A stretch of DNA of 42,120 bases from Pirellulales bacterium (GTDB taxonomy: Bacteria; Planctomycetota; Planctomycetia; Pirellulales; UBA1268), in NCBI GenBank assembly GCA_040880915.1, contig JBBEEF010000041.1:1-42120 (forward strand), written 5' to 3'. Every line of letters begins with the position of its first letter. Within the stretch, counting starts at the first letter, position 1. Made by a program: the position numbers and the translations under genes. Positions 2,509 through 36,818 of this stretch are shown in pieces. The notes under the pieces were generated by a model. It was not told the DNA's origin, did not search any database, and was given only the letters and a program-made list of their open reading frames with translations.

Positions 2509-2531
2509 CAGCTCCGCTGCCCGGATCTTGC

Positions 2532-3854: not shown

Positions 3855-3991
3855 GGCGGAACTCCTACAAAGCGGGGTTGGGGCCTTGAGCCGTGTCGCG
3901 GCCAATAACTGATTCGCCGGGTCAAGTGTCTCTTATTCCCGGCCCGCTTGCCACTCCGGGGCCCGGCCAGGCTGGAGGAATAGCCCTGAGC

Positions 3992-5707
3992 CTAATGATT
4001 GATGATGAACTCATTGGAATTGAGCACCGCCCACCAGACGTCTTGAAGGGCGGCGGAGACGTCCCCCTTCCGGGCAGCGAGCAGGGCCGTCGCGACCTGC
4101 CGCTCCTTCGACGACGGCACTCGGGCCAGGGCCGCCAGATAGAGCGCGTCGATCTTGGCCGCGGGCGAGTCGGAACTCCGCGCGACCCGATCGAGGAAGC
4201 CTCCTTGGCCGGTGCTCGTGGCCTGCTTCATCAGCTCCCCGTTGAACATCATGAGAACCTGGGGAATCGAGCCGTTAAAGGTCGTGGAATCATCTCCCTC
4301 GTCTGTGCCGAAGGCGATGATGAACTGCGACAGCCACGTGTCCTTTGTTTTCGCCGCGTCCTCGCTGCGACTGGTCTTGTCGGCCTGCGTCGCGGTCAGG
4401 AGCGACTCATACAGCTGCTCGGCCTGCATCTGCCGCACATAGAAGTGGGTGAACTTCGGCCGCTCGCCCAGGGCAGGATCGTCGGCCTTGTTGGCCGCGG
4501 TCTTGCGACTCGACAGGGCGTAGGGCCGCGAGAGCACGATCCAGCGGGCCAGCTCCTTGAGATCGAAGCTGTTCTCACGGAACTGCTCGGCGAGCCCGTC
4601 GAGCAGTTCGGGGTGGGACGGCGAATTGTGGTCACCGAGGTCATCGACGGGCTTCGTGAAGCCGTACCCGAGAAACTGCCCCCACATCCGGTTCACGATC
4701 GCCTTCGTGAAGTAGGGGCTGCCCTTGATCAGCTGGGCGAGCTCCTTGCGACGATTCGCACCGTAGGAGTTCCCGTCCGACATCGTGCCGGGCAGATACC
4801 CACTCTTTGAAATCTCCGTGCCGTCGATGAAAACCGGGTACGCAACCTTCATGATGCCGTTGCGGAGCTCGTAGTAGAGTTCGGCTTCCTCCGGATTGCC
4901 CCCTTCACCGGCAAAATCCTCGTCGACGAGTTCGACCCACTGCACGTCATCACCGCCGCCCCGCTTCCGCAGCGCCCGTGTCTGCCGGAAAAACGCGTTC
5001 ATCTCCCAGAACTGGTTCTGCTTGCCTTTGTTGAACGGATGGTTGTGGCACTGCGTGCACTGGACCTGAAGACCGAGAAACACCTGGGCCGTCTTGGCCG
5101 TAGCCTGCACGCCGTTCTCGACACCCATGTCCTCCATCTTGCCGCTGAGGAAATTGGTGGCGCCGTTGAATCCGGACAGATCGTTGCGGTTGGCATTGAC
5201 CCCGGTCGCCGTCACCAGATCGTCCATGAACTTGTCGTAGGGCAGGTTCTTGGAGATGGCACGCCGGAGATACTGCCGCATTCCGGGACGGCTTACCCGC
5301 TCGTTCTCGACATCCCGACCGATAAGGACCGTGGTCCAGACGTCGGTAAAGTGCCGGGCGTATTCATCCACATACTCATCCCCCAGCAGGCGAGCCACGA
5401 GGTCAGCCTTCTTGGTGGGGGATGAATGAGTGAGGAAGGCCTGCAATTCCTTGACGGAGGGCACCCTGCCGATGAGATCGAGATGGACACGGCGACACCA
5501 CTCGCCGTCGGCCGCGGGAGCCGACGGCTGCAGGCCGGCATCGGCCCAGACGGAGGCAATCTGCTCGTTGATGAACTTGACCTGCGGGATGCCGAAATGC
5601 TCGTCGCCCGCCCCCTTGCCGGCAGGCGCCGCCGCCAGGGGGATGCCTCCGCAGAAAACCAGCACGAGCAAGGCCCGGGCAGCAGATACGCAGACGGGGC
5701 GACGCAT
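3992..5707 (-). CDS. DUF1549 (PSCyt2) / DUF1553 (PSD1) domain protein, secreted
   Basis: Signal peptide MRRPVCVSAARALLVLVFCGG. DUF1549-type DLIGRVPSVKELQAF. A CTQCHNHPF motif that contains CxxCH. C-terminal DUF1553-like region. ATG at 5707 has GGAG 8 nt upstream. Confidence 0.85.
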   Translation of the reverse strand: MRRPVCVSAARALLVLVFCGGIPLAAAPAGKGAGDEHFGIPQVKFINEQIASVWADAGLQPSAPAADGEWCRRVHLDLIGRVPSVKELQAFLTHSSPTKKADLVARLLGDEYVDEYARHFTDVWTTVLIGRDVENERVSRPGMRQYLRRAISKNLPYDKFMDDLVTATGVNANRNDLSGFNGATNFLSGKMEDMGVENGVQATAKTAQVFLGLQVQCTQCHNHPFNKGKQNQFWEMNAFFRQTRALRKRGGGDDVQWVELVDEDFAGEGGNPEEAELYYELRNGIMKVAYPVFIDGTEISKSGYLPGTMSDGNSYGANRRKELAQLIKGSPYFTKAIVNRMWGQFLGYGFTKPVDDLGDHNSPSHPELLDGLAEQFRENSFDLKELARWIVLSRPYALSSRKTAANKADDPALGERPKFTHFYVRQMQAEQLYESLLTATQADKTSRSEDAAKTKDTWLSQFIIAFGTDEGDDSTTFNGSIPQVLMMFNGELMKQATSTGQGGFLDRVARSSDSPAAKIDALYLAALARVPSSKERQVATALLAARKGDVSAALQDVWWAVLNSNEFIINH

Positions 5708-5808
5708 AGCAGACTCCGGAAAGGGGCGCACGGCCGGGGTGGAACATCCCCGGCAGCAGCATTCTATTCGGAATGCCCGTCCGGGCCTATTCCCAGTCGC
5801 GTTGTCGC

Positions 5809-21777: not shown

Positions 21778-22107
21778 CTACGACCGCGAAGAGGCCTTAA
21801 TCTTGATGTCGACGCCGGCGGGCAGGCTCAGCTTATTGAGAGCCTCGATTGTTTTGGCAGTTGCCTGCACAATGTCAATGACCCGTTTGTGGGTCCGAAT
21901 TTCGTACTGCTGCCGGGCCTTCTTGTCGATGTGGGGCCCGGAAAGGACGGTATATCGCTCGATCCGCGTTGGCAGCGGGATCGGGCCATGCACCTCGGAA
22001 TTTGTCCGCTTGGCCGTATCGACGATTTCCGCCGCGCTCTGATCAAGCACGGTGTGGTCGTAGGCCTCCATGCGGATGCGGATAACTTCCTGGGTGGGAC
22101 CGGCCAC
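21778..22107 (-). CDS. rpsJ: 30S ribosomal protein S10
   Basis: ...[39 protein letters not shown]...HKRVIDI. GTG start with GGAG 8 nt upstream. Confidence 0.95.
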
Positions 22108-22353: not shown

Positions 22354-24021
22354 TCAGCGGCCGGCCCGACCCGGAACAGGCCGCGGCCCCACGGGCCCTT
22401 GAACGGGGGCCAACGGCACGACCTCCGGCAGAGCTACCCCGGGAACTCGGGCTCCGCCGCGGTCGCCGGTCTGGTCGAGCGATGTGTCGGCCGCCCGCAG
22501 ATCGGCGTCGGCCCGCCAGTATTCCTGGCGGGCGGCGATCTCGAGAAGATCAGCGTCAAACTTGGCCTCCTCGCGGAGCGTGACGCGGAGGATATCACTG
22601 CGGCCCAGCCGGAACTGCTCCCGCTCGGCCTCCGCCACGAGCGTTGCCAGCTCCTCCTGCTGCACGGCCTGCTTGTGGAACTCGTAGGCCCGCTCGAGTT
22701 TCGAGTAGGCATCCTGGACCTCGGCCCGCACGCTGTCGAAGGTGAACTCGAGCCGCCGGTCGAGTTGCACGAGCTGGGAATCGACCACTTGCATCCGGCC
22801 GCGAGCATCACGCCGCTGGGCCGGCATCTGGAACACGAGGGCCGCCTGCAACACCTGCCGATCGAGGCCGTCGTTGCCCGACAGCCCGCTCTTGCCAAAG
22901 CCGGCATCCTGGTTGCCGAACACCTGGGCGTCGATCCCCGGCAGCGTCTGGTTGACGGCGAGCCTGCGCTCCACGAACAGCTTCTCCCGTTCGAGCGACA
23001 ACCGTTGGAACTCCGGCCGGGCGCCGAGCGCTCGAGCAAGCGCCGCTTCGTAGAAGCTTATCGAGAGGGGCACCGGTTCGGGGAGGGGCTGCATCCGCCG
23101 GCGGGCCGGCAGAAGCGGCTTGCCCGCCGCATCCCGCAGAAACAGCGACAGGTCGATCGTGGACTGCTGCACGGCCCGGTCAGCCCGCACCAGCAGGCCG
23201 CGGCGCAGCGCGATGTTTTTCTGGTTGTCGACCCGCTCGATGTTGGCCATCACGCCCCGGTCCACCTTGGTGGCGATCTCGCTGTCGCGGCGGACGGCCA
23301 GTTGCTCGAGCCGTTCGGCTGCCCCCTCCCGCTCGCCGCTGCCACTCCACAACCAATAGGTCAGGGCCGCTGCCCGCATGAAATCAAGCCGGGTCCTCAC
23401 GATCGTCGGTTCGGCGATCGCCCGATCGAGGCGGGCCTTGTCGCGTCCGGCTCGGGGCCCGTCGATGTCCCGATCGCGGGCCAGGGGCATCGTGATGCCA
23501 CCGCGAAACTCGCCGACGTCGGCCGTCTTCTGACTGAGATTGTAGGTGGGGAAGTCGCCGAACCCGGTCCGATAGCCGCCGAAAACCTGGACGCCCCCGC
23601 TCTGGAGCAGCTGCGAGAGGCCGAAGTTGGAGCGGTAGTTCTCGTAGGTGCCGGGCGCGAGGGCATTGCCCGACATGTCGATATTGGTATCGAAGGCGCC
23701 CATGGCGGCTGTGAGTCGGCCGGCGGTCACTCCCCGCTCCCGCTCGATCGCCTGGAGCAGCGGATAGTGCTGGCGAACGCTGTCGAGCACCTCGCCCAGC
23801 GTGAGCGGCTCGGGGCGGTCGTCGATCGCCAGGCTGCCCGGCAGCTGGGCCACGGCCGGCGGCTCGAGCAGGGGCGCTCCTGGGGCCGAGGGGGGAATCG
23901 GGGCTGCACCCTGCAGCCCGACCGGGCCCGGCAGATCAGCCGGGGCTGGCAGGGGCTCGGCGGCCCGCACCGTCATGGTGAGGCCGACCGCACAGGCGGT
24001 GAGCAAACGGACGAGCGGCAT
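22354..24021 (-). CDS. TolC-like outer membrane efflux protein
   Basis: Signal peptide MPLVRLLTACAVGLTMTVRAAEP. Two coiled-coil/beta repeat halves with a TolC-family feel (LTLGEVLDSVRQHYPLLQA..., ...LRAADTSL). ATG 24021 has GAGG 6 nt upstream and lies 8 nt after the HlyD stop. The upstream part of ORF 22354..24480 overlaps the HlyD gene and is rejected. Confidence 0.8.
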   Translation of the reverse strand: MPLVRLLTACAVGLTMTVRAAEPLPAPADLPGPVGLQGAAPIPPSAPGAPLLEPPAVAQLPGSLAIDDRPEPLTLGEVLDSVRQHYPLLQAIERERGVTAGRLTAAMGAFDTNIDMSGNALAPGTYENYRSNFGLSQLLQSGGVQVFGGYRTGFGDFPTYNLSQKTADVGEFRGGITMPLARDRDIDGPRAGRDKARLDRAIAEPTIVRTRLDFMRAAALTYWLWSGSGEREGAAERLEQLAVRRDSEIATKVDRGVMANIERVDNQKNIALRRGLLVRADRAVQQSTIDLSLFLRDAAGKPLLPARRRMQPLPEPVPLSISFYEAALARALGARPEFQRLSLEREKLFVERRLAVNQTLPGIDAQVFGNQDAGFGKSGLSGNDGLDRQVLQAALVFQMPAQRRDARGRMQVVDSQLVQLDRRLEFTFDSVRAEVQDAYSKLERAYEFHKQAVQQEELATLVAEAEREQFRLGRSDILRVTLREEAKFDADLLEIAARQEYWRADADLRAADTSLDQTGDRGGARVPGVALPEVVPLAPVQGPVGPRPVPGRAGR

Positions 24022-24029
24022 GACGGACC

Positions 24030-25424
24030 TCACCCAACCTTGATCTTGGGGGGCTTGGGCGGTTCGTCTGTCGCCTTCGGGACCGGCGCGAGCACGGGCG
24101 GGAAGCCATTGAGCCGCCGCCAGATCTCGAAGCCCAGCGGCACCCGGTTGAGGAACACCCAGCCGACCACCTGATTGCCCTGCCGGAGAAACTCCGAATC
24201 GGGCCACTGGTCGCCCAGCATGACCCGCTCGGGCTCGACGAGGATCCGGCATTGGCCTGCCCTGCCGCTGGCCGCGTCGATCTGCCGAATCTTGCCGCCA
24301 AAGGTGCCGATCGCCAGCTCCGGCCAGCCTGAGAACTGGACCGCCGGCCAGCCCTCGAACTGCAGCCTCACATGGGGCATGGCCCCTTGGCGGTCGGCGT
24401 AGGCCAGCACGATCGGCGCATCGACACCGTCGAGAAAAAGTTCCGCCACGCGGTCGCTGGTGTCGGGCACGATCGTGCACAGCTCATCGCCTTCCGTCAC
24501 GTACTGACCGCCCTGGATCAGGTTGGCCGACACCCGGAACACGACCCCGGCGCAGGGAGCCAGCACCCGGCGGGCCTTGAACCGCTCGATCCGGTTGTCG
24601 ATTTCCTGGATCTCCCGCTCGATCGAGAACAGGTTTTGCTCGGCCTTGCGGAGATTGCTTCGGGCCACGGCGATGGCCGACAGGCCCGTGGCGTCGGCCT
24701 GCACAAGCATGGCCTCTTGGGTGAGCAGAGCCGCGCGGGCGCGGGCAATCTCGGCGTCGGCCTTGTCGGTGTCGGTGAGGGCCCGATCGGCCCGCATCCG
24801 GGCCTCGTCGCGATTGAGCTTGCTTTCCAACCCACCAAACCGCGGGTTGGTAAACAGGTCATCGAACATCTCGTAGCGGCTGAGTTCGAAGTCGCGGGCG
24901 AAGGTCGCGTTGGCCTTGACCTGCTGCGTAACGGTGATGGCCTGCTGTGCCGCTTCACGATTCGCCTCCGCGGCCCTCATTGCCGCTTCCCGGGCCGCCT
25001 CCTGGGCCTTGGCAGCCGCGGCCAGTTCGGTCAGCTCCTGACGGGCGGCCGAGATCCGGCTGGTCAGAAACTCCCGCTGGGCCTCGAGCCGGGCGGCCAA
25101 CTCAGGATCGGCATCTTCAATATCGACGAGCGGATCGTTCAGCTTGACCCGGCTTCCCTCGACCACGTGCCAGGTCTGCACCTGGCCCGACACTCGGGCC
25201 GTGATCACCTGCATTCGCTCCACGGGCGAGTAGGCGACGATCGTACCCCGGCACATGACGGTCTGCTGCCAAGGGGCGAGGGCTAGGGCAAACGGGATAG
25301 CCAGGAAGACGACGAAGATCAGGCGAGCCAACCAGCTGATGGCCCGCGGCGTGAGCGTGTGCGCCAGCGAGATCCGCGTCGTGGCGTCACGTTCGGGGGG
25401 AATCGGCTTCGATGTGGCGGTCAT
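24030..25424 (-). CDS. HlyD-family periplasmic adaptor (membrane fusion protein)
   Basis: N-terminal TM WLARLIFVVFLAIPFALALAP. A lipoyl-like VSGQVQTWHVVEGSRVKLNDPLVDIE. A long Ala/Glu/Arg coiled coil. C-terminal beta-barrel region. ATG 25424 has GAGGGG upstream; GTG 25448 is an alternative. Confidence 0.8.
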   Translation of the reverse strand: MTATSKPIPPERDATTRISLAHTLTPRAISWLARLIFVVFLAIPFALALAPWQQTVMCRGTIVAYSPVERMQVITARVSGQVQTWHVVEGSRVKLNDPLVDIEDADPELAARLEAQREFLTSRISAARQELTELAAAAKAQEAAREAAMRAAEANREAAQQAITVTQQVKANATFARDFELSRYEMFDDLFTNPRFGGLESKLNRDEARMRADRALTDTDKADAEIARARAALLTQEAMLVQADATGLSAIAVARSNLRKAEQNLFSIEREIQEIDNRIERFKARRVLAPCAGVVFRVSANLIQGGQYVTEGDELCTIVPDTSDRVAELFLDGVDAPIVLAYADRQGAMPHVRLQFEGWPAVQFSGWPELAIGTFGGKIRQIDAASGRAGQCRILVEPERVMLGDQWPDSEFLRQGNQVVGWVFLNRVPLGFEIWRRLNGFPPVLAPVPKATDEPPKPPKIKVG

Positions 25425-25438
25425 GACCAGGCCCCTCG

Positions 25439-27133
25439 TCACGTCCACTCGATCACACGGTCGCAGCGGCTGCGGATGTCATCCCGGACGGTGGCGATGA
25501 CGAGCGTCCACCCGGCCGTGCGATCGAAGAGTTTGTCGAGTAGTTCGGGACAGTTTGAAAGGTCGAGGCTGTCGAGCGTGCCATCGAGCACAAGCAACCG
25601 CGGCCGGCCGACAACCGCCCGCGCGATCGCCAATCGGCTGAGCTCGTTGTTCGAGAGTGGTCGACCGTCGGGGGTCAGTTCGGTCTCGAGGGCGTCTGGC
25701 AGCCGGGCCAGCCGGTCGGAGAGCCCGACCCAGTCGAGCACCTGCCGCACCCGGGCGGCGGTGACCTCGCCGCGGCCCAGCCGGATGTTGTCCGCCACGG
25801 TGCCGGCGAACACCTCGGGCCGGCCCACGAAGGCGATCTGCTGCCGCGTGGCTGGGCGGTCGAGTCCGCGGACATCGATCCCGTCGAGTTCGACCACGCC
25901 CTGACGGGGCACACGCAAAAGTGCGAGCGTCTCGAGCAGCGGCGTCTTGCCGGTCAATCCGACGATGGCCACCCGCTCACCGGGATTGAGCTCAATCCGC
26001 TGCGGGTCGCCGCTGAAGCCGGGCAGTTCCGCCATGACGGCCAGCGGTCCGCCGTCACGCGCGAGAAATTCACCCTCGGCGGGCTCCGGCGGGAGGCGGT
26101 CGAGCACCCCCAGCTTGTCGAGCGTGGCCTGAAGGTCGTAGAAGATCTCAACGTACTTGCCGATCTTCGACAGGGACGCCAGCACGAGGGTCACAATCAA
26201 CTCGCTGGCCACGAGCTGTCCCAGCGTGAGTTGCCGGTTGATCACCAGCCAGCCGCCCAGGCCGAGCAGCACGGTGGCCCCCACCACCTCGAGCGTGAAG
26301 GCGAAAATGGTCTGCCGCCAGATAACGGCGAAGTGCCGCTTGCGGGCGGACACGTACTGGTCGGAAAGGAGGTCGGCCCGCTCGATCGCGAGCGCCGCTC
26401 CGCCGCCACTGCGAAACGTGTGCGGGCAACGGGCCACCTCCTCCAGCCAGGCGGCCACGTCGAACTTCGCATAACTCTCGGCCACGCTTGTTCGCACGCC
26501 CCCGATCCCGAGTCCGAGCAGCATGAACACGACCAGCACAGCGAGCACGATCGCGAACGTGAGCAAGAAGGGGTGATAGGACGCGAGCACGACCAGGCCG
26601 ACGAGCGTCATCATGATGATGCCGACTCCCTCCACGAGCAGCGTCGCGATCGACTTCTGACCCGAGGAAACCTCGAAGAACCGGTTCACGATGTCGGCCC
26701 GGTTGGTCCCGTCGAAGGAGGCGATGCTGGTGCGGGCCAAACGATCGGCGAACCCGAGCGCCGTGCGGACAAACAGCCGCCGCTGCAGGCACTCGGCCAC
26801 GTAGGTCTGCATCGCCCGCAGCACGGCCGCCACAAACAACAGCGTGAACATCACCGCCGCCAGCACGAAAACCGGCCAGAGCAGGATCCCGAAAGCCACG
26901 GTATTAACAAGCGCCTCGATGGCCGCCGGCGCGACCAGCGACAAGAGGCCGACGCCCAGGGCGAAGGCCAGGAGCGTGTACACGTCCGCCCACTCCAGCC
27001 GCATCAGATCGATGAGCCGTTGGCCGGGGCTCTTGCCATGCGCATGGCCAGCGGCATGGCCAGCGGCATGGCCAGCGGCATGGCCAGCGGCCGACGAGTC
27101 GTGGTGCGACGGTTGAGAGACGGCGGTCACCAT
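25439..27133 (-). CDS. ABC half-transporter (type I exporter fold, six TM segments plus C-terminal NBD) with degenerate ATPase motifs and a His-rich N-terminal tail
   Basis: The TMD has six hydrophobic segments, beginning LLAFALGVGLLSLVAPAAIEALVNTV. The NBD-like region is recognisable but reads VAIVGLTGKTPLL, LSNNE, LLVLDG and VIATVRDD at the Walker A, signature, Walker B and H-loop positions. Start is uncertain: ATG 27133 (used here) or TTG 27271. Confidence 0.75.
   Translation of the reverse strand: MVTAVSQPSHHDSSAAGHAAGHAAGHAAGHAHGKSPGQRLIDLMRLEWADVYTLLAFALGVGLLSLVAPAAIEALVNTVAFGILLWPVFVLAAVMFTLLFVAAVLRAMQTYVAECLQRRLFVRTALGFADRLARTSIASFDGTNRADIVNRFFEVSSGQKSIATLLVEGVGIIMMTLVGLVVLASYHPFLLTFAIVLAVLVVFMLLGLGIGGVRTSVAESYAKFDVAAWLEEVARCPHTFRSGGGAALAIERADLLSDQYVSARKRHFAVIWRQTIFAFTLEVVGATVLLGLGGWLVINRQLTLGQLVASELIVTLVLASLSKIGKYVEIFYDLQATLDKLGVLDRLPPEPAEGEFLARDGGPLAVMAELPGFSGDPQRIELNPGERVAIVGLTGKTPLLETLALLRVPRQGVVELDGIDVRGLDRPATRQQIAFVGRPEVFAGTVADNIRLGRGEVTAARVRQVLDWVGLSDRLARLPDALETELTPDGRPLSNNELSRLAIARAVVGRPRLLVLDGTLDSLDLSNCPELLDKLFDRTAGWTLVIATVRDDIRSRCDRVIEWT
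27042..27089. repeat. Perfect 12-bp tandem repeat x4 (gcatggccagcg), in frame, encoding (HAAG)4 in the ABC protein tail
   Basis: Four identical consecutive 12-mers read directly from the sequence. The translated tract is AAGHAAGHAAGHAAGHAHG. Confidence 0.95.
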
Positions 27134-27276
27134 GCGGCGAGTTTTGGGGGCGTCGTGCGGGCGGTGTGTTTCAGGCTCCAGAGCATGGGACGCGACTCCT
27201 GGGGAATGGGCGGCTGAACCCTCCCAACCGCTGTTATCGTAATAAATAGGCCCCCGCGATGACTTCGACAAATGAG

Positions 27277-27292
27277 ATTGTTTCGATACAAT
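27277..27292. promoter_or_regulatory. Candidate LysR-type operator (imperfect dyad ATTGT-N6-ACAAT, fits T-N11-A)
   Basis: ATTGTTTCGATACAAT lies in the divergent region between the ABC gene and the LysR gene, 31 nt upstream of the LysR ATG. Confidence 0.3.
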
Positions 27293-27322
27293 TCATCGGA
27301 AAAAGCGATGGATTTCTAGCCC

Positions 27323-28225
27323 ATGCACTGGCTCAACTACCACCACCTCCTCTACTTCTGGACCGCCGCCCGCGAGGGAAGCATCGCGAAGGCCTGCCAA
27401 CGGCTTCACCTCACGCAGCCCACCGTGAGCGGCCAGATCAAGTCGCTCGAGCGGGCCTTCAAGGCGAAGCTCTTCCAGCGGGCGGGCCGCTCGATCGCCC
27501 TCACCGAGACCGGCCGGCTCGTCTACCGCTACGCCGACGAAATCTTCGCCATCGGCCGGGAGCTCCAGGATGCGGTCGCCGGCCGGGCCACGGGCCGCGG
27601 CCTGCGGCTCGTGGTGGGCGTGGCCGACACGTTGCCCAAGCTCATCGTTCACCGGCTGCTCCAGCCGGCGCTCGACCTTGAAGAGCCAGTCGAGCTGACA
27701 TGCATCGACGGCGACCCCGACCGGCTGCTGGCCCAGCTGGCACTCCACGAACTCGACCTGGTTGTCAGCGACTACCCCGCCAACCCCCGGCTGGGCATCA
27801 AGGTCTTCAACCACCTCCTCGGCGACTGCGGGATCACGTTCTTCGCGACCGCGCCGCTCGCCCGCCAGTATCGCCGCGGCTTTCCCGGGTCATTGGCCGG
27901 CGCCCCGCTGCTCCTGCCCGCAGGGAACGCCGCTCTGCGGCGTTCCCTGGATCAATGGTTTGACGAACTGGGGATCCGGCCGGCGGTTCGCGGGGAGTTT
28001 TCCGATAGCGCGCTGCTCAAGGCGTTTGGCGGCCGCGGTGAGGGGCTGTTTGTGGCCCCGACGGCCGTCGAGAACGAGGTTCGCCGGATGTATGGCGTGG
28101 GGATCGTGGGCCGGGAGGAGCGGGTCCGCGAGCGGTTTTACGCGATCTCGGCCGAGAAGCGGCTCGCCCACCCAGCGGTGCTGGCGATCACCCAGGCCGC
28201 GCGGACAAGCCTCGCCCGCGGGTGA
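27323..28225 (+). CDS. LysR-family transcriptional regulator, NhaR-like
   Basis: MHWLNYHHLLYFWTAAREGSIAKACQRLHLTQPTVSGQIKSLERAFKAKLFQRAGR...LVYRYADEIF...GVADTLPK...LLKAFG...FVAP...HPAV follows the conserved blocks of the NhaR subgroup as I remember them. Confidence 0.85.
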   Translation: MHWLNYHHLLYFWTAAREGSIAKACQRLHLTQPTVSGQIKSLERAFKAKLFQRAGRSIALTETGRLVYRYADEIFAIGRELQDAVAGRATGRGLRLVVGVADTLPKLIVHRLLQPALDLEEPVELTCIDGDPDRLLAQLALHELDLVVSDYPANPRLGIKVFNHLLGDCGITFFATAPLARQYRRGFPGSLAGAPLLLPAGNAALRRSLDQWFDELGIRPAVRGEFSDSALLKAFGGRGEGLFVAPTAVENEVRRMYGVGIVGREERVRERFYAISAEKRLAHPAVLAITQAARTSLARG

Positions 28226-28287: not shown

Positions 28288-30387
28288 TCACAGATAGGCG
28301 TCGGCCGTCTCCGCCGGGGCGGGCCCATACTTGAGCGGGGCCATCGTGAAGCTGGCCCGCCCTTGGCTCACGCTCCGCACCGCTGCTGAGTAGCCGAACA
28401 TGCTCGCCAGTGGGGCCTCGGCGGTGAGCACGGTGGCCCCGCCACGGATCTCGGTCGCGGTGATGATCGCCCGCCGCTGCTGGAGGTCGTTGATCACGTC
28501 GCCGAGATGGTTCTCAGGCACCGTTACCTCCACCCGCATGACCGGCTCGAGGAGCACCGTGCCAGCCGCCTTGAGGAGCCGCTCGATCGCATCGGCCGCC
28601 GCGATCCGGATCGCCACGTCGCCAGGCGGTGGGTCGGGGATCGGGCTCTCGAGCACGATGAGCCGCACGCCCCACAGGGGGCAGCCCTTGAGCCCACCCC
28701 GCTCAGCGCTCTCCCGCACGGCCTCGGTCATCGTCACCGCGAGCGCGGCGAGCGTGTCACCCTCGGGGAACCAGCCCTGCTCCACCGTCACCGGCCCCTG
28801 CTCGTCGGTCGGCTCGCCACGGACGGTCACCGTGGCCACGAGCGTCTGCCCGGCCACCTGCCGATTGGCCTCGCCGGCGACGGTGGCCGCCGGCCCGAGT
28901 GTCTCCTTGTAGCTCACCCGCGGCTTGTGGACGCGGCACTTGAGCTTGAAGTCTCGCTCGAGCCGGTGCCGGATCACCTCGAGGTGCAATTCCCCCATCC
29001 CCGAGATCAGCGTCTGCCCCGTCTCCTCGCTCTCGACCGCCCGGAACGTGGGGTCCTGCCGCTTCATCATCTCGAGGGTGTCGGCGAGTTTCTTCCGCTC
29101 GAGGCTCGTCTCCGGCTCGATCGCCATCGAGATCACGGTCTCGGGAAAGGTGATCGTCTCGAGCACGATTGGGGCCGCCACGTCGCAGAGCGTGTCGCCG
29201 GTGACGCTTGCCCGCGGCCCGATCACCCCCACGATGTCACCGGCCCGGGCCTCGGGCACCTGCTCGCGGCGGTCGGCCTGCACGTGCCAGAGCTGGGCGA
29301 TGTTCTCCTTTTTCTGTTTGAGCGGATTCCAGGCCCGGCTCCCCGCCTTGAGCGTGCCGGAATAGACCCGCACGAACGCGAGGTCGCCGTGCTTCTCGGC
29401 GAGGATCTTGAAGACGAGACCGCAGAAGGGCTCGGCGGCGTCGGGCCGGCGGGCGATCGGCGTGGGCGTTTTCTTCCCCGGATCGAGCCCCTCGACCGGC
29501 GGCACATCGGCCGGGCTCGGCAGGTACCAGGCCACCGCGTCGAGCACCGGCTGGACGCCGATGCAATCAAGCGCTGAGCCCCCCAAGACCGGTACACACA
29601 GCCGGGTGATCGTGGCCTGGCGGATCACCTTCCGCATCAGCTCCGGCGGGAGCGGCGCCTCGGCGAGAGCGAGTTCGGCGACCTCGTCGGAATAGTCGAA
29701 GAGCGTGGAGACGAGGTGCTCCCGCCACTCGGCGGCCAGCGCCGCCGCCTCCGGCGGAATCGGTCCCCGGATCACGGCGAGCCCCTGGCCGCCGGCGGCG
29801 AGTGCCTCGTCCTTGGGGGCGAAGGTGAGCAGCTCCATCGTGACGAGGTCGACAAGCCCCCGGAACGGATCTTTGACGTGCGGCGGGCCCATCCCCAGCG
29901 GCACCTGAAGCACGAGCGGCTTGGCCCCCAGCCGGTCTTCGATCTGCCGCACGGTCCCGAAGAAGTCGGCCCCCTCGCGGTCGAGCTTGTTGACCAGCGC
30001 GATCCGCGGCACTCCATACTTGTCGGCCTGCCGCCAGACGGTCTCGCTCTGGGCCTCCACCCCCTCCCGCGCGCTGAACACCACGACCGCCCCGTCGAGC
30101 ACCCGCAGGCTTCGCTCCACCTCGGCCGTGAAGTCGACGTGGCCGGGCGTGTCGATGAGGTTGACCGCGACGTCGTTCCAGGCGAACGAGACGGCCGCGG
30201 AGTAGATCGTGATCCCCCGCTCCTGCTCCTCGGGATCGAAGTCGGTCACGGTCGTGCCGCGATCGACCTCGCCGAGGCGGTGGCTCGTCTTGGTGAAATA
30301 GAGCATCCGCTCGGTGAGCGTCGTCTTGCCCGCGTCGATGTGGGCCACGATGCCGATGTTGCGGATTTTTTCGAGGGAGCTGGTCAT
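28288..30387 (-). CDS. fusA: Elongation factor G family GTPase (stand-alone copy, not in a str operon)
   Basis: 699 aa. IRNIGIVAHIDAGKTTLTERML, DTPGHVDF, NKLDREGADF, then EF-G domains II-V (ISMAIEPETSLERKKL..., GELHLEV). Confidence 0.85.
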   Translation of the reverse strand: MTSSLEKIRNIGIVAHIDAGKTTLTERMLYFTKTSHRLGEVDRGTTVTDFDPEEQERGITIYSAAVSFAWNDVAVNLIDTPGHVDFTAEVERSLRVLDGAVVVFSAREGVEAQSETVWRQADKYGVPRIALVNKLDREGADFFGTVRQIEDRLGAKPLVLQVPLGMGPPHVKDPFRGLVDLVTMELLTFAPKDEALAAGGQGLAVIRGPIPPEAAALAAEWREHLVSTLFDYSDEVAELALAEAPLPPELMRKVIRQATITRLCVPVLGGSALDCIGVQPVLDAVAWYLPSPADVPPVEGLDPGKKTPTPIARRPDAAEPFCGLVFKILAEKHGDLAFVRVYSGTLKAGSRAWNPLKQKKENIAQLWHVQADRREQVPEARAGDIVGVIGPRASVTGDTLCDVAAPIVLETITFPETVISMAIEPETSLERKKLADTLEMMKRQDPTFRAVESEETGQTLISGMGELHLEVIRHRLERDFKLKCRVHKPRVSYKETLGPAATVAGEANRQVAGQTLVATVTVRGEPTDEQGPVTVEQGWFPEGDTLAALAVTMTEAVRESAERGGLKGCPLWGVRLIVLESPIPDPPPGDVAIRIAAADAIERLLKAAGTVLLEPVMRVEVTVPENHLGDVINDLQQRRAIITATEIRGGATVLTAEAPLASMFGYSAAVRSVSQGRASFTMAPLKYGPAPAETADAYL

Positions 30388-30426
30388 GTGCTGGTCAGCT
30401 GGCGAGGGGCCGCCGAAAAGGGGACA

Positions 30427-32313
30427 TCACATTCTTGCCACGGTACCGATGCCGAGCAGGTCGAGGCCCTGGCGGAGCACCCGACCGGTCAGCAGGCAGA
30501 GGACCAGGCGGCTCGCACAGGTGCCCGGCTCGGCCTTGAGCACCGGCAGGGCGTCGTAGAAGGTTGAGTAGCGGCCGGCCAACCGAAAGAGCCAGGCGGT
30601 CAGCAGGTTGGGGCGGTTGTCGGTCTCGACGTCCTCGAGGGCCTCGGCGAACCGCACGAGCTCGATCGCCAGGGCCCGCTCCTCGGGGGCGGCCAGCTGC
30701 ACGCTCGCCACTGCCTCGCCCGCGGCTTCCCGGTCAACGCCCCCCTTTGTGCAGATGCCCTCGACCCGGGCCACGGCGTATTGCATGTAGGCCGCGGTGT
30801 TGCCCTTGAGCTCGAGCATCTTGTCGAAGCTGAACACGTAGTCGGTGGTGCGGTTCTGGCAGAGGTCGGCATACTTGATGGCTCCGATGCCCACCGTCTC
30901 GGCCACCTGCCGCCGCGTTGTCTCGTCCATCTCGCCGCGGCCAGCCTCGGCCACCACGGCGGCGGCCCGCTCCACCCCTTCATCGAGCAGGGCCTCGAGG
31001 CCGACGGTGTCACCCGAGCGGGTCTTGAAAGGGCGGCCGTCCTCGCCGAGCACCGTTCCGAAGGCCACATGCACGAGCTCGACGCCGCCGAGCCCCTGGC
31101 GGCGGGCCGTCTCGAAGACCTGCTCGAAGTGCCGGCTCTGCCGGTGGTCGACAACATAGATGATCCGGTCGGGCTGCCAGTGCTGGTGCCGCCATGTGAT
31201 CGTGGCCAGATCGGTGGTGGCGTAGAGAAAGGCGCCGTCGGCCTTGCGGATCAAGAGCGGGGGCTCGTCGTCGCCGGCGAGAAACACCCCCACCGCCCCA
31301 CGGCTCTCACGGGCCAACCCCGTGGCCAGGAGGTCTTCGACCACGCCGGCGAGCAGCGGCTGGAAGAAGCTCTCGCCGTGGCAGTGGTCAAAAGACACGC
31401 CCAGCCGGCAGTAGAGCCGCTCGATCTCGGCCAGGCAGACCGGCATGAACCGCTCCCAGAGCCCGCGGTTCTCGGGGTCTCCGGCATGGAGTTTGGCTGT
31501 CTCGGCCTGCACCTCGCGGCCCGCCTCGGGATGGGCCGCCGCCAGCGCCGCGGCGGCGGGATCGGCGGCGAGTTCCTCGGGCTTGTTGTCGGCCAGCTTC
31601 CGCACGAGCCGGTAGAGCCGGCCCAGTTCCGCCGTCGGGTCGGCTGCGAAGGCCGCCTCGTCGCGGCAGTGCTTCCAGCCCCAGAGAATCATGCCGAACT
31701 GGGTTCCCCAGTCGCCGAGGTGGTTGTCGGTGATCACGCGGTGGCCGCGGAACGCGAGAATCCGCGCAAGCGCGTCGCCAATCACCGTCGAGCGGATGTG
31801 ACCGACGTGCATCGGCTTGGCCACGTTGGGGCTCGAGAAGTCGACCACGATCGTGAGCGGCTTGTCAATCGGCGGCACGCCCAGCCGCTCATCCCCGACG
31901 GCGGCCAGGACGGCGGCGGCCAGGGCATCGTCGCGGACGCGAACATTGATGAAGCCCGGCCCCACGGGATCGCCCGGCGGCTCGAAAAAGGTCGCGTAGC
32001 CTGGCGCGGCCGCGAGCCGGGCGGCGATCTCGGTGGCCACCTCGCGGGGCTTGCGGCCGGCCCGCTTCGCCAGGGCCATCGCCATCGTGCCGGAGTAGTC
32101 GCCGAACTTCGCGTCGGCTGTCTCGCGAACCTGCTCGAGAAGCGGGGGGATCTCGCCGGGGTCGAGGGCCACCACGCCGTCGGCCGAGAGTTTTGTCAGG
32201 GCCGCGGCGAAGGCTTCGCGGAGCGTCGTTCGAAAGCACGTCCGCGGCGGTGCGCCCGGTCGCGCTGGACCACCCGCGGCGGCCGGCGACTCGTGCGGGT
32301 TGGCGGCCGTCAT
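30427..32313 (-). CDS. argS: Arginine--tRNA ligase
   Basis: 628 aa. VDFSSPNVAKPMHVGHIRSTVIGD (HIGH region), a C-terminal DALR anticodon-binding-like domain, and ends in ...IGTVARM. Confidence 0.92.
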   Translation of the reverse strand: MTAANPHESPAAAGGPARPGAPPRTCFRTTLREAFAAALTKLSADGVVALDPGEIPPLLEQVRETADAKFGDYSGTMAMALAKRAGRKPREVATEIAARLAAAPGYATFFEPPGDPVGPGFINVRVRDDALAAAVLAAVGDERLGVPPIDKPLTIVVDFSSPNVAKPMHVGHIRSTVIGDALARILAFRGHRVITDNHLGDWGTQFGMILWGWKHCRDEAAFAADPTAELGRLYRLVRKLADNKPEELAADPAAAALAAAHPEAGREVQAETAKLHAGDPENRGLWERFMPVCLAEIERLYCRLGVSFDHCHGESFFQPLLAGVVEDLLATGLARESRGAVGVFLAGDDEPPLLIRKADGAFLYATTDLATITWRHQHWQPDRIIYVVDHRQSRHFEQVFETARRQGLGGVELVHVAFGTVLGEDGRPFKTRSGDTVGLEALLDEGVERAAAVVAEAGRGEMDETTRRQVAETVGIGAIKYADLCQNRTTDYVFSFDKMLELKGNTAAYMQYAVARVEGICTKGGVDREAAGEAVASVQLAAPEERALAIELVRFAEALEDVETDNRPNLLTAWLFRLAGRYSTFYDALPVLKAEPGTCASRLVLCLLTGRVLRQGLDLLGIGTVARM

Positions 32314-32720
32314 GATGCCGCGGCCCCGGCGTCGGGCAGCGGCACCTGGGCGGCGTCGCTCCAGAGCCCCTCGAGATCCCAGTAGCCGCGGGCTTCGGGA
32401 TCGAAGAGGTGCACCATCACGTCTCCATAGTCGAGCACGATCCAGCGGCCCTCTTCGTAGCCCTCTGCCCCCCGTTTGCGATCCTGGAGGTCCTGCCTGA
32501 CAACCTTCTCGATCTCGTCGGCCATCGCATGCATCTGCCGGCGGCTGGTGCCGGTGGCGATCACGAAGTAGTCGACCACCGGCGTGAGCGCACGAAGGTC
32601 GAGGATCCGGACCTCAGTTCCCCGCGTCTCGCCGGCCACGCGGGCGGCCAGCAGGGCCAGCGGCAGCGCACGGTCAGCCGCGGGAGGCTGTGATCCACGA
32701 TGCGGTCGGGCGGTACTCAC
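32310..32720 (-). CDS. rsfS: Ribosome silencing factor RsfS
   Basis: ...DYFVIATGTSRRQMHAMADEI...WIVLDYGDVMVHLFDPEARGYWDLEGLW. ATGA overlap with argS. GTG start. Confidence 0.9.
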   Translation of the reverse strand: MSTARPHRGSQPPAADRALPLALLAARVAGETRGTEVRILDLRALTPVVDYFVIATGTSRRQMHAMADEIEKVVRQDLQDRKRGAEGYEEGRWIVLDYGDVMVHLFDPEARGYWDLEGLWSDAAQVPLPDAGAAAS

Positions 32721-32758
32721 GGGCGGGAGGGGGTCCGATGGGATAATAAAGATTTGTC

Positions 32759-32767
32759 ATTCTACCA
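32759..32767 (-). promoter_or_regulatory. Possible extended -10 element (TGgTAGAAT) upstream of rsfS-argS
   Basis: The minus strand reads TGGTAGAAT inside a locally AT-rich patch of the 94-nt gap between coaX and rsfS. No convincing -35. Confidence 0.25.
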
Positions 32768-32814
32768 GCACTCCCCAGGGAGGAGCACCGGCTTGGCAGC
32801 TCCAGCCAGGAGTG

Positions 32815-33675
32815 TCAGCGGCTGCAGGCCCGCGAGGCGGCCAGGGCGATCCCGCCGAGCACGAGGTCGGGCACCTCGATCGCCCCGGGCAGGGCATCCC
32901 GAACGGCGGCCCGCCAGCCGCCTGTCAGCACCGTCACGGCCCCTGGGCCCAGCGCTGCCGCGGCCTCCGCCACCAGCCGTGCGACCGCTCCGCGGATCCC
33001 GAAACCCACGCCGGCAGCGATCGCCTCCTCGGTGGATCGCCCCGGCATCGGGGGTGGCATGTCCTGCCCGAGGGCCGCGATGGCCGGCAGCTTGCTCGTT
33101 CCCTCGGCGAGCGCCCGGAACATGAGAGCCGGCCCCGGCAGAATCCCGCCGCCGAGAAACCTGCCGTCGGCTGCCACGAGATCGACCGTGGCGGCCGTGC
33201 CGCAGTCGACGACGATCGCCGGCGCCTCAGGAGGCTTGACGAGCGCGGCGGCCGCAGCGCCAGCCAGCCGGTCGATCCCCACCCGTTCCGGTGCGGGCAG
33301 ACTCACCACCAGCGGGAGATCGGCATGTCCGATCCGCCGCTGCCGCAGGGGGCGGTGCCGGGTCGCCGAGATCTCGGCAACCACAGCCTCGAGTCGGGTC
33401 GCGGCCGCCTCGGAGACGCTCGCGACAATCACGACGGCGCGGCCCGGGGCCGCCGCAAGGAGCCACCGCTCGAGGTTTTCGGGGTGGAAGTGATGACTGT
33501 CGAGATCCTGCCGATGGGAGAGCCCCGGCAGGCCATAGCTACCGGCGAGCGCCGGGTCGGCGAGCCGCGCGAGCTTGATCAGCGAGTTGCCCACGTCGGC
33601 GAGCAGAACCGTGTCGCCCGAGCAGATGCCCGGGCCCGGTGGGCCGGAAAGCCCGGGGTGAATGGTGGCGGTCAT
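32815..33675 (-). CDS. coaX: Type III pantothenate kinase
   Basis: LLADVGNSLIKLA, VVDCGTAATVDLV, GGGILPG. ATGA overlap with the obg stop. Confidence 0.85.
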   Translation of the reverse strand: MTATIHPGLSGPPGPGICSGDTVLLADVGNSLIKLARLADPALAGSYGLPGLSHRQDLDSHHFHPENLERWLLAAAPGRAVVIVASVSEAAATRLEAVVAEISATRHRPLRQRRIGHADLPLVVSLPAPERVGIDRLAGAAAAALVKPPEAPAIVVDCGTAATVDLVAADGRFLGGGILPGPALMFRALAEGTSKLPAIAALGQDMPPPMPGRSTEEAIAAGVGFGIRGAVARLVAEAAAALGPGAVTVLTGGWRAAVRDALPGAIEVPDLVLGGIALAASRACSR

Positions 33676-34673
33676 GCGGCCGGCTCCCGGCGGTCGAGCT
33701 CGGCCACCACCGCCCCCACGAGCCGGTCGAGGCCCGCGCCAGTGGCCGCGCTGGCGGCGAGGACGTCGCGGCCGAGTTCCCGGGCAAGCGTCTCCCGCAC
33801 CTCAGACGCTCCAGGCAACTCGCTCTTGCTCACGACGACGATCTCCGGACGCGTCCCCAGCGAAGCATCGTATCGCACGAGCTCCTCGCGGATGGTCCAG
33901 TAATTCACGAGCGGGTCGCTGCCGTCCACCGGTGAGGGCTCGACCACGTGGACGAGAATCCCAGCCCGCTCGACATGCCGCAGAAACTCATGCCCCAGGC
34001 CCACCCCGGCGTGCGCGCCCTCGATCAGTCCGGGCAGGTCGGCCAGCACAAAGCTCCTGTCCCGATCGACTTCCACGATGCCGAGGATCGGCCGCTTCGT
34101 CGTAAACGCATAGTCGGCGATTTCAGGACGCGCCCGGGAGAGCCGCGACAGGAGCGTGCTCTTCCCGGCATTCGGCTTGCCGACGAGCCCCACATCGGCG
34201 ATCACCTTGAGCTCGAGCAAGAGCCGACGGTTCTCGCCGGTTTCACCCGGCGTACATTCCCGGGGCGCCCGGTTGGTCGACGACTTGAAGTGGATGTTGC
34301 CCCGCCCCCCCGTGCCGCCCCGTGCTGCGACGATCTCCTGGCCGGCCACTGCAAGGTCCTTGAGCACGAGCCCCGTGGACTCGGCGATCACGATCGTTCC
34401 GGCGGGAACGAGGAGCACGAGATCCTCGCCCCGTGCGCCCGAGCGATTGGCCGGACCTCCGGCCGTGCCGTGCTCGGCCCGCCACTGCTTGCGATGGGCG
34501 AGCGGTGAGAGCGAATCGACACCCGCCTCGGCCCGCAGGATCACACTCCCACCATGGCCGCCGTCGCCGCCGTCGGGACCACCCCGCGGCACATATTTCT
34601 CTCGCCGGAAGCTACAGATGCCGCGGCCACCATTGCCCGCCGCCACTTCGATTTGGACGCGGTCGACGAACAC
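33672..34673 (-). CDS. obg: GTPase Obg/CgtA
   Basis: MFVDRVQIEVAAGNGGRGICSFRREKYVPRGGPDGGDGGHGGSVIL...DVGLVGKPNAGKSTLLS...ADLPGLIEGAH. GTG start. Confidence 0.95.
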   Translation of the reverse strand: MFVDRVQIEVAAGNGGRGICSFRREKYVPRGGPDGGDGGHGGSVILRAEAGVDSLSPLAHRKQWRAEHGTAGGPANRSGARGEDLVLLVPAGTIVIAESTGLVLKDLAVAGQEIVAARGGTGGRGNIHFKSSTNRAPRECTPGETGENRRLLLELKVIADVGLVGKPNAGKSTLLSRLSRARPEIADYAFTTKRPILGIVEVDRDRSFVLADLPGLIEGAHAGVGLGHEFLRHVERAGILVHVVEPSPVDGSDPLVNYWTIREELVRYDASLGTRPEIVVVSKSELPGASEVRETLARELGRDVLAASAATGAGLDRLVGAVVAELDRREPAA

Positions 34674-35087: not shown

Positions 35088-36818
35088 TTAGTCCTCGTAC
35101 CGGAAGCCCCAGGAATAGGTCTGCCCCTCGTGGACCGCCAGGGCTTCGGCAAAAAGGGTCGGGCCTTCCGGGCCAAAGAGCCCTTCCTGGATCGACTTCT
35201 GGGCCGGCTCCGGCGATGCCATGACCGCGTCGGCCGCCGCCTCAAAGGCACCCCGGGCATCAAGCCGGGCGATGGCCGCGGGGTCGGCATCGGTGGCGTC
35301 GAGCGTCGCCAGCGTGCGGGCCAGGATCACAGCGCGGCCCAGCCAGTCGATTCGCGGGGCCGCTGGGCCAAAGCAGGAAACGGCCAGCGCCCTGCGGGCC
35401 GCCATATCGGGAGCGGACTCGAGGTTCCGCGTGATCTTGGCGAGTGATTCAAGCGGCCGGCTCTCGATCTCCTCCGGCGAAAGCCGCATGGTCTCGAGGG
35501 CCTGCCGCCGCTTTTGATCACGTTCTGGATCGACCGGCCCGGCGGCGGCGCGGGCGAGTTCCTCGATCGACTGCACGCCAAGGTCGCCGAACAGGTCGCG
35601 GGCGGCCTGGCTCCGCCCGTCGGTGTCGTCAATCGCGGCGAGCTTTTCGAAGACCGCCAGCAACGGCAGCAGGCTCGCGCCGGCCGTGCCCGCGGGCTCC
35701 CGGAGGCTGGCGCTATCCCACGCTAGCCCCAGCCGCTGGAGGCCGACCTGCGGCCGGGAGGAGGTATGGCCTGGCCAACCGAGCGCCGCAAGCAGGCGAC
35801 CCCCGAGCGCCATCCGTTCAAACATGCCGCGGTGTCCGATCGCGATCTTCTCACCGGAGGCATCGCCAGGCCTCCAGAAGTCGAGCCGCAAGCTCTTGAG
35901 AGTCTGTTCGATGTGTCTGCCGGGCGGATCGTCGGGGGCGATCCGGCTCTGTTCCAGCTGTTGCCAGCGGATCGCGTTGGTCAGGCCGCGAACGTAGATG
36001 GAAAAGTAGTCGATCCGCGGATCGATCGCCTCCCAGATCGCAACGCCCCACCGCTCTTCGCCCGGGGCGATCTCCGTGGCGGAGATCGCCACGCTGTCGA
36101 GAAGTTCGCGGGCGGGGTCCTCCCGGAGCCGGATCGCGGCCATCGCCGATGGCACGACCCGGTCGAGATACGCCCGGTAGGCCGAGATGCCCTCGGCATC
36201 GGAGAGTCCCTCCCGGGTCTCGAGGACGAATTGCGGCAGGAATCGGACCGGCTTCTCGAAGCGTTCCACCGTCCGTTCGAGCGGATCAGCCTCGCCCGGC
36301 GCGTCCTGCCGCCGGGTTTCGATCCGTCGCCCGCCCAGGTTTTTCACCCGGTAGACCATATAGAGCACGTTCACTCGCCGCATCTCGCGGTTGTTGGCGG
36401 GGATGTCGACGGCGATCGTGCGGGGTGGCTTGAAGGCGAATTCCAGGCACCAGATGTCCCGGGGATATTCAAGCCGCTCGGCCCGGCTGAGGAGCGTGGT
36501 GCTGCGAGCTGCCCATGTCGGCTCCCACCGCAGGCCGGCCAAGCCCTCGGTCACCTCGACGAGCGGACCCCTCTGGATCGCATCGTCGGATGCCATGTCG
36601 GCCGGAATCACGGTCAGGACGCCGGGCGCGAGTGAGCGGAAGGCTTCCTGGTTCGCCGCCGCGCCTGCCGCCAGCCAAGCCACACCGACCGCCCCGATCA
36701 GAATCTTTGTCGCGGGCCGGGCAAGGCGGCACGCGTGGCTGGCCTCGCCGGAAAGCCACCCGGATCGGCAGCCCTTGCCGAAAACCCCCCTGAAGAGTGA
36801 TCGAAGGCATTGCGTCAT
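35088..36818 (-). CDS. Hypothetical protein, 576 aa, N-terminal signal-anchor, no family recognised
   Basis: Long ORF with normal amino-acid composition (W, Y, F, D, E and K all present), unlike the shadow ORFs. Hydrophobic segment [17 protein letters not shown] near the N-terminus. Codirectional with rpmA-obg. Confidence 0.6.

Follow-up and report, generated by a model that had tools for sequence, protein, structure and literature searches.

A conserved ABC exporter-like protein of Planctomycetota with a degenerate nucleotide site as a probable non-hydrolyzing component of a three-gene envelope module

Can an ATP-binding cassette (ABC) exporter remain in use in a trans-envelope machine when the residues required for ATP hydrolysis are gone? 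This question is raised by a 42,120-nt stretch of DNA from a Pirellulales bacterium (GenBank assembly GCA_040880915.1, contig JBBEEF010000041.1, positions 1 to 42,120; referred to here as the window), where three co-oriented minus-strand genes in the list of open reading frames (ORFs) encode an ABC half-transporter-like protein, a HlyD-type periplasmic adaptor (membrane fusion protein, MFP) and also a TolC-like outer membrane factor (OMF). To our knowledge, ATP hydrolysis is the defining trait of ABC exporters, every characterized type I secretion system (T1SS) and ABC-type tripartite pump included, and the degenerate ABC exporters that we know of always retain one working site. Judged by its motifs, the ABC subunit of the window is a predicted pseudo-ATPase in which catalysis was lost in an ancestor. 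The reading favored here, to which a probability of about 0.6 is assigned, is that this conserved pseudo-ATPase acts as a non-hydrolyzing inner-membrane component of the tripartite module.

The identity of the three proteins is supported at the level of domains, gene order and fold. An ABC exporter, a HlyD-family adaptor and a TolC-family OMF are encoded together, as seen from both Pfam domains and gene order. The ABC protein matches Pfam ABC_tran (PF00005) with 55.3 bits against a cut-off of 25, its alignment to the nucleotide-binding domain (NBD) of BSEP runs along the whole domain, and its match to ABC_membrane (PF00664), at 22.2 bits, falls below the cut-off of 28 yet spans 263 of the 274 profile positions. 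The adaptor matches HlyD_3, HlyD_D23 and Biotin_lipoyl_2, and the OMF matches OEP. An AlphaFold model of the ABC protein features six long transmembrane (TM) helices (predicted local distance difference test, pLDDT, 68.5 overall and 80–92 in the NBD), and its top Foldseek matches are the type IV exporters TM287/288, HlyB (8dck) and PCAT1, with E values of about 1e-18. The six-TM half-transporter originally proposed for this gene is thus borne out by the modeled helices, the fold matches and the near-full-length, sub-threshold PF00664 alignment. Curated families are a different matter. The best NCBIfam matches of the ABC protein are the NHLM ABC1, LssB and HlyB exporter models, at roughly 110–120 bits against cut-offs of roughly 690–850. 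The curated T1SS models for ABC proteins give 111.9 bits against 725 (TIGR01846), 117.4 against 693 (TIGR03375) and 81.7 against 510 (TIGR01842), and the curated T1SS adaptor model TIGR01843 gives 39.7 bits against 208.65. Because the NCBIfam scores lie so far below their cut-offs, the ABC protein belongs to no curated family, and the database label for these proteins is the generic “ABC transporter ATP-binding protein.” No C39 peptidase domain is matched by Pfam in the ABC protein, which starts about 35 residues before the elbow helix.

The motif register of the NBD was checked in three ways: by phmmer against BSEP, by BLASTP against P0143 (a 47%-identical, canonical-like relative whose Walker A and B, signature and H-loop are canonical), and by family alignments. 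All three agree, and the coordinates were verified by translation. At Walker A, the window protein reads VAIVGLT--GKT where P0143 has VALLGPSGAGKS, a two-residue deletion relative to GPSGAGKS. The Q-loop region, FVGRPEVF, contains no Gln, and the family as a whole mostly lacks Gln at this position. The signature is PLSNNE as opposed to VLSRGQ in P0143, Walker B is LLVLDG as opposed to LVLLDE, and the H-loop region is IATVRDD as opposed to STTHDRE. The alignments therefore confirm each of the lesions listed in the original prediction, namely a Walker A two residues short, the missing Q-loop Gln, LSNNE in place of the signature, Gly in place of the catalytic Glu of Walker B, and the missing H-loop His. 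A register in which intact motifs had been overlooked was considered and rejected, as the same degenerate register was obtained in three independent alignments. The further claim that every ATPase motif has been lost holds insofar as all five motifs are altered, but it is slightly too strong, since Walker A still has its Gly-Lys-Thr, Walker B its Asp and the D-loop its Leu-Asp.

This degeneracy is shared by a large family. In a protein search, 2111 protein clusters match the ABC protein at E ≤ 1e-10, and the best 120 clusters, 62–96% identical to it, all have a degenerate signature, Asp-Gly or Asn-Gly at Walker B, and no H-loop His. In a locus survey that took one representative genome for each GTDB species, at least 581 of the genomes encode a relative, and the best 80 loci were examined. 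All of these come from metagenome-assembled genomes (MAGs) of Planctomycetota, mostly Pirellulales and Planctomycetaceae, with a few obviously mislabeled bins. Some MAG records with a Planctomycetota-type locus (e.g., L006, L012, and L023) are titled Candidatus Kuenenia, Chitinophagaceae or Alcaligenaceae, and are probably mislabels or mis-binned contigs. The degenerate state is common to 80 of the 80 orthologous loci, which come from different species-level genomes, and the order ABC, MFP, OMF is the same in every one of these loci that is long enough to show it. In loci where the ABC protein is at least 55% identical to that of the window (55–82%), the adaptor and OMF are 65–87% identical to those of the window, a higher range than for the ABC protein.

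Selection on the two domains of the ABC protein differs in degree. Among close pairs (dS 0.09–0.4), Nei-Gojobori estimates of omega (dN/dS) are 0.01–0.2 for the transmembrane domain (TMD) and 0.06–0.3 for the NBD, and comparisons of the window with its four closest relatives give about 0.1 for the TMD and 0.3–0.4 for the NBD, values that are rough at a dS of 0.5–0.8. The NBD of the Planctomycetota orthologues, with omega well below 1, is under purifying selection and is less constrained than the TMD; mean column entropy is 0.70 in the TMD versus 0.96 in the NBD. The TMD also retains nearly all of the polar and charged signature residues that are common to canonical-like relatives. The idea that the degenerate motifs themselves might be kept by selection fares poorly, as the former catalytic positions are of average-to-high variability and differ by clade.

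Conservation in an ABC protein normally peaks at the positions of the nucleotide site. When column variability was computed across 77 short-form sequences and expressed as a percentile within the NBD, the Walker B Asp fell at the 59th percentile (Asn in 26 of the 77), the H-loop position at the 71st, the Q-loop position at the 88th, and signature positions 3–5 at the 55th to 94th. The D-loop Asp521 and Arg550 are invariant in the same set. The position of the catalytic Glu is Gly in 68 of the 77 family members and Arg in clade C. Three clades were delineated from a neighbor-joining tree without support values. In clade A, to which the window belongs, the P-loop has a two-residue deletion (GxxGKT). 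Clade B has an intact GPSGSGKT, but Asn-Gly at Walker B in a large subclade. The basal clade C has no Walker A Gly or Lys (ANAGST-like), LDPxE, and Asp-Arg. The former catalytic positions thus vary from clade to clade (Asp to Asn, Lys to Ser, Gly to Arg), while clades A and B keep Gly395 and the Lys-Thr of Walker A (69–73 of the 77 sequences), the P-loop of clade B being full-length. Since these lesions differ by lineage on a shared background of Glu-to-Gly and no His, the nucleotide site appears to have decayed neutrally after catalysis was abandoned. The nearest outgroups of the short-form family in the neighbor-joining tree have Asp-Gly but still His, which suggests that the Walker B Glu-to-Gly change came first, followed by loss of the H-loop His and the signature, and then of the binding residues. 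Two clade C copies of the lysR-ABC-MFP-OMF locus (L067 and L069) come from the same MAG, HRSG-H1-bin-26, and represent either true paralogues or strain heterogeneity in the bin.

More distant relatives were collected by phmmer over 1.84 billion representatives, which returned 1433 proteins at E ≤ 1e-30. The best 150 representatives, 40–64% identical to the window protein except for one 85%-identical fragment, were aligned together with the query (151 sequences). More than 650 aa are present in 124 of these 151, typically about 700–790 aa, owing to an extra N-terminal domain of about 160 aa. Even at E ≤ 10, no Pfam family matches this domain (in P0124, P0127, P0135, P0143 and others); visually, it may resemble a C39-like domain without the catalytic Cys. 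Across the alignment, the Walker A Lys is kept in 117 of 151 sequences and the Walker B Asp in 145, while the catalytic Glu is found in only 41 (Gly occupies the position in 69) and the H-loop His in only 29. A full motif check was passed by only 10 of 151, and Lys, Asp, Glu and His are all kept in 13 of the 150 representatives. Relatives at 40–49% identity show mosaic degeneracy. The canonical-like relatives closest to the window are only about 46–47% identical and belong to other, longer subfamilies. The ABC-adaptor-OMF arrangement is shared by a canonical-like member, L004, and by a fully degenerate one, P0135 (WP_162655825.1 of Tuwongella immobilis), which is encoded on a complete chromosome of 6.69 Mb.

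How might such a protein work? According to the favored reading, the ABC protein would probably act as a homodimer without ATP hydrolysis, and in clades A (the window's, with its truncated P-loop) and C it would probably not bind nucleotide either. The NBD may have been retained for dimerization, for coupling to the TMD, or as a docking or receptor surface, and the working conduit would be the assembly of TMD, adaptor and OMF. Because conservation within the protein is highest in the TMD, a working membrane domain is indicated rather than a mere scaffold. Thus, of the three interpretations originally offered, a non-catalytic tripartite component is the best fit, although the term scaffold is too narrow for it; half of a heterodimer is disfavored and recent inactivation is refuted. 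Passage through the conduit would be passive and gated, or else driven by a source other than ATP, for which a proton or ion gradient and an extracellular ratchet are candidates. It is also possible, and is put forward only tentatively, that the ABC exporter fold has been repurposed as the ATP-independent inner-membrane part of a tripartite conduit, in the form of an ion-gradient-coupled secondary transporter or a gated channel, with the dead NBDs serving only as a module for dimerization, gating or reception.

Several points weigh against the favored reading. All of the evidence is sequence inference drawn from uncultured genomes, the close relatives being MAGs throughout. The ABC subunit is moderately modeled, at an overall pLDDT of 68.5, and the three clades come from a tree without support values. 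The window's own omega values are rough because dS is high. Given the retained Lys-Thr and Gly395 of clades A and B, and the full-length P-loop of clade B, part of the family may still bind phosphate or nucleotide to some extent. An unlinked canonical partner is conceivable, as the search for one covered the window and the loci. Lastly, the Gln-to-Glu changes at E73 and E282, described below, are only suggestive as an energy-coupling feature, since E73 is also found in many relatives.

Two weak hints bear on the energy source or substrate, though neither counts as evidence of function. The short-form family has two invariant membrane Glu residues, E73 and E282, where canonical-like relatives mostly have Gln. 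E73 is found in 2 of the 13 canonical-like sequences and in about half of the degenerate ones among the 150 representatives, and is therefore both widespread and phylogenetically confounded. A His-rich or HG-repeat cytoplasmic segment lies just before the elbow helix throughout the family (P0124–P0147 and L001–L084), with 11–19% His compared to 1–2% elsewhere, and is found in canonical-like and degenerate members alike. Reminiscent of metal-binding loops, it may bind metal. Within this segment of the window protein, a perfect 12-nt tandem repeat (GCATGGCCAGCG, 4.2 copies, 27042–27091) encodes (AGHA)n; it appears to have expanded recently in the window's lineage, because the 96%-identical P0001 has only two units.

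Regulation and neighborhood add further leads. Clustering of flanking ORFs found only a LysR regulator conserved beside the module across clades; about 30 of the 80 loci, drawn from all three clades, have its gene upstream of the ABC gene in divergent orientation. The operon would often be controlled by a divergent NhaR-like LysR regulator. Given the linked regulator, the conserved dyad between the two genes and the adjoining promoter-like site (Table 1), the operon is probably inducible. By analogy with E. coli NhaR, Na+ could be the inducer, which is only a lead. In clade B, a GT4 glycosyltransferase gene lies immediately upstream on the same strand in 21 of about 32 loci with enough flank (the gap in L003 is 77 nt), and loci such as L003/L024, L028, L016 and others contain a glycan-synthesis cluster (GT2, GT4, AsnB, and a methyltransferase), with Ysc84, GlmS and PyrG (CTP synthase) downstream. 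This neighborhood could tie the module to the export of glycoconjugates, or could be no more than synteny. Cations or metals and glycoconjugates are weak hints at a substrate. No cargo candidate, whether an RTX protein, a protein with a C-terminal signal or a peptide with a double-glycine (GG) leader, was found in the window; a substrate encoded elsewhere is conceivable. That no obvious cargo gene or C39 domain is adjacent was also the original observation, and it is confirmed; rpsJ, 246 nt downstream of the module, and the divergent LysR gene leave no room for a cargo gene.

An unlikely alternative that fits part of these data is that no transport takes place and that the ABC protein is a membrane anchor or scaffold of the adaptor–OMF assembly, with a structural role as an inner–outer membrane tether or a role in signaling. 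The loss of the catalytic machinery, the lack of a linked cargo gene, and the greater conservation of adaptor and OMF relative to the ABC protein are all compatible with this. It is more difficult to reconcile with the TMD being the most conserved region of the ABC protein and keeping its polar and charged signature residues, which is not expected of a mere anchor, and the ligand-responsive LysR control suggests an inducible rather than a constitutive structural function.

Ranked after it, and likewise improbable, is that the ABC protein is the degenerate half of a heterodimeric exporter, a competent partner encoded elsewhere supplying one working ATP site. Known heterodimer gene pairs are normally adjacent. 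No second exporter gene is linked to the module in the 80 loci, each of which, like the window, has a single ABC gene, and no second ABC NBD is found elsewhere in the 42-kb window. When a canonical NBD was searched by tblastn in the window and 84 loci, only three weak, unrelated matches several kilobases away appeared. Heterodimeric type IV exporters with one degenerate site are nonetheless common (PMC7756269; PMC8277102). In principle, degenerate members might pair with the 13 of 150 representatives that are canonical-like (Lys, Asp, Glu, and His), and Planctomycetota genomes carry several paralogues, one MAG having both L067 and L069. Against such pairing, the canonical-like relative L004 has its own MFP and OMF, and the Walker A/B/H-loop half and the signature are both defective in one polypeptide. 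Because both site halves are defective in the same chain, both composite sites would be non-consensus with any partner. Moreover, a clade B subgroup has lost the Walker B Asp as well, and clade C the Walker A Lys.

A still more remote alternative, considered very unlikely, is that the NBD remains an ATPase or NTPase with unconventional catalytic residues, which would make the protein an ordinary ATP-driven exporter with odd motifs. The Walker A Lys-Thr, Walker B Asp and D-loop are kept in the window protein, and a non-consensus signature, or Asp instead of the catalytic Glu, is tolerated in some ABC proteins (PMC7756269). In the window protein, however, two residues are missing from the P-loop, the general base has given way to Gly, and neither the H-loop His nor the Q-loop Gln is present. 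The would-be catalytic positions also vary freely between clades, the opposite of what is expected of an active site. Finally, the view that an ordinary ABC transporter of type I secretion was recently inactivated and is decaying as a strain-specific pseudogene, for which only the degenerate motifs themselves speak, can practically be dismissed given the intact ORF and orthologues of conserved length, the degenerate state of 80 of 80 loci, an omega well below 1 in both TMD and NBD, and the absence of canonical-motif orthologues above about 47% identity, the canonical-like relatives at about 46–47% falling in longer subfamilies with their own adaptor and OMF.

The pseudo-ATPase module can be set against several known systems. 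Like the HlyB/HlyD/TolC and LssB/LssD T1SSs, it has a three-component architecture, the same gene order, an adaptor with an N-terminal TM helix, and a type IV exporter fold. Unlike the HlyB and LssB systems, it scores far too low against the curated models, lacks a C39 or C39-like domain, and has no linked RTX or GG-leader cargo. HlyB-type transporters need ATP hydrolysis, whereas all of the hydrolytic residues are missing from the ABC component of the window, in which hydrolysis is predicted to be absent. The non-consensus Walker B Glu, H-loop His and signature are also features of the asymmetric exporters and their relatives (TM287/288, TmrAB, BmrCD, LmrCD, and the eukaryotic TAP, CFTR, SUR, and ABCC1). 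In asymmetric exporters, one NBD contributes its Walker half and the other its signature to the degenerate site, one consensus site remains, and the degenerate NBD is retained and conserved, presumably for dimerization or regulation, as it is here (PMC7756269). The genes of asymmetric exporters are adjacent or fused and one consensus site is kept, whereas the window has a single gene in which both halves are defective, and even the ATP-binding elements decay. CFTR, a channel, and SUR, a regulator, provide precedent for an ABC exporter fold used for something beyond ATP-driven pumping, with NBDs as gating or regulatory modules. Both bind ATP at two sites and hydrolyze it at one, and both are eukaryotic full-length proteins outside any tripartite envelope complex, unlike the window protein.

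Two further comparisons are instructive. SbmA/BacA (SLiPT) has a membrane domain structurally related to the TMDs of ABC exporters and draws its energy from the proton gradient (PMC13316013). Because SbmA is proton-driven, an ABC exporter-like TMD fold can work without ATP; SbmA differs from the window protein in having no NBD at all, in being an importer, and in lacking an adaptor and OMF. The SecA_DEAD-HlyD-peptidase M50 module of Planctomycetes-Verrucomicrobia-Chlamydiae (PVC) bacteria (Kamneva et al., 2015; PMC4452313) also joins HlyD-type adaptors and OEP to an unconventional inner-membrane or energy component. It has no ABC protein, consists of a SecA-like ATPase, M50 and GAF proteins, and is unrelated to the genes of the window. 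No published description of this degenerate ABC-MFP-OMF family was found in full-text literature searches, the one paper on a T1SS-like system of Planctomycetes (PMC4452313) dealing with that different module.

The features of the locus are collected in Table 1. The ABC ORF as called spans 25439..27271 (-), its upstream end at a TTG (27271). About 120 orthologues, each of about 556 aa, begin at MVTAVSQ, and the start is therefore placed at the ATG at 27133, giving 564 aa. The ORF is intact and its orthologues are of conserved length, as originally stated. The GTG start of the adaptor overlaps the ABC stop by 10 nt, an overlap also seen in orthologous loci. Three tightly packed ABC, HlyD and TolC genes were correctly predicted, and all three are confirmed; the 14-nt gap reported after the ABC gene is obtained only if an internal ATG of the adaptor is used instead of the GTG. 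For the OMF, the start is most likely the ATG at 24021 (MPLVRLLTACAVGL...), which gives a signal-peptide-like N-terminus beginning MPLVRLL.

Table 1. Positions of the features of the ABC-adaptor-OMF module and its regulatory region in the window.
Feature	Coordinates	Strand	Basis
ABC half-transporter-like gene, 564 aa: His-rich N-terminus, six-TM type IV exporter TMD, degenerate NBD	25439..27133	-	ORF, orthologue start, Pfam/NCBIfam, fold
His-rich cytoplasmic N-terminal segment (SQPSHHDSSAAGHAAGHAAGHAAGHAHG)	27034..27118	-	Translation, family comparison
TMD, residues ~36-345, most conserved part of ABC protein	26099..27028	-	Family alignment, AlphaFold model
NBD fold, residues ~360-564, PF00005 55 bits, pLDDT ~80-92	25442..26056	-	Pfam, alignments, AlphaFold model
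Walker A remnant GLTGKT, two residues short of GxxxxGK[ST]	25943..25960	-	Alignments, translation
Q-loop position, Arg438	25820..25822	-	Alignments, translation
Signature remnant LSNNE (canonical LSGGQ)	25643..25657	-	Alignments, translation
Walker B remnant LLVLDG; Asp retained, catalytic Glu replaced by Gly	25580..25597	-	Alignments, translation
H-loop position, Val549; next residue Arg550 invariant in family	25487..25489	-	BLASTP, column variability, translation
HlyD/MFP-type periplasmic adaptor, 472 aa, with a cytoplasmic tail at the N-terminus and a single TM helix	24030..25448	-	ORF, Pfam, NCBIfam
TolC-like OMF, 555 aa, signal-peptide-like N-terminus, Pro-rich extensions	22354..24021	-	ORF, Pfam OEP, translation
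Divergent LysR-family regulator	27323..28225	+	NCBIfam NhaR equivalog NF008284 249.7 bits vs 219; PF00126 73.5, PF03466 53.7 bits
Dyad ATCG-N7-CGAT, T-N11-A LysR-box type, lysR-ABC intergenic region	27295..27309	.	Related dyad, same position, in 17/29 orthologous intergenic regions
Sigma-70-like promoter match TCGACA-16-TACAAT upstream of lysR, consensus match only	27265..27292	+	Sequence match

Around the module, the pump operon and lysR are inserted between a gene for an elongation factor G (EF-G)-like protein together with argS (28288–32313) and rpsJ (21778–22107), with which the S10 ribosomal operon begins. This EF-G/S10 position recurs in some clade A loci; in L001, the pump is found there without lysR. 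A promoter-like site lies at 22320–22292 (-), between the OMF stop and rpsJ. Elsewhere in the window, 1093–5731 holds a MatE efflux gene followed by a pair typical of planctomycetes, DUF1501 and PSCyt2/PSD1 (DUF1549/DUF1553), in support of the assignment to this phylum. Two long ORFs have no Pfam match, one of 439 aa at 32584–33903 (+) and one of 576 aa at 35088–36818 (-); a 544-aa gene without a Pfam match, located in L001 between a ParA-like gene and rpmA, may correspond to the latter.

A selected and widespread family of single-gene exporters that has dispensed with the catalytic and, in some clades, the ATP-binding residues would mean that a TMD-adaptor-OMF machine can be useful without its motor. 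The family makes concrete the questions of what NBDs do besides hydrolysis and of what else could energize or gate a trans-envelope duct. In practical terms, the label “ABC transporter ATP-binding protein,” carried by these proteins in hundreds of Planctomycetota genomes, will mislead inferences about metabolism and secretion. The gradient of decay across clades provides a ready-made mutational series for structural and biochemical work. If the module does prove to be an ATP-independent conduit, it would be the first ABC-type tripartite (T1SS-like) system not run on ATP, and its relatives would represent natural intermediates, from canonical to hydrolysis-dead to binding-dead, that show a primary pump turning into something else.

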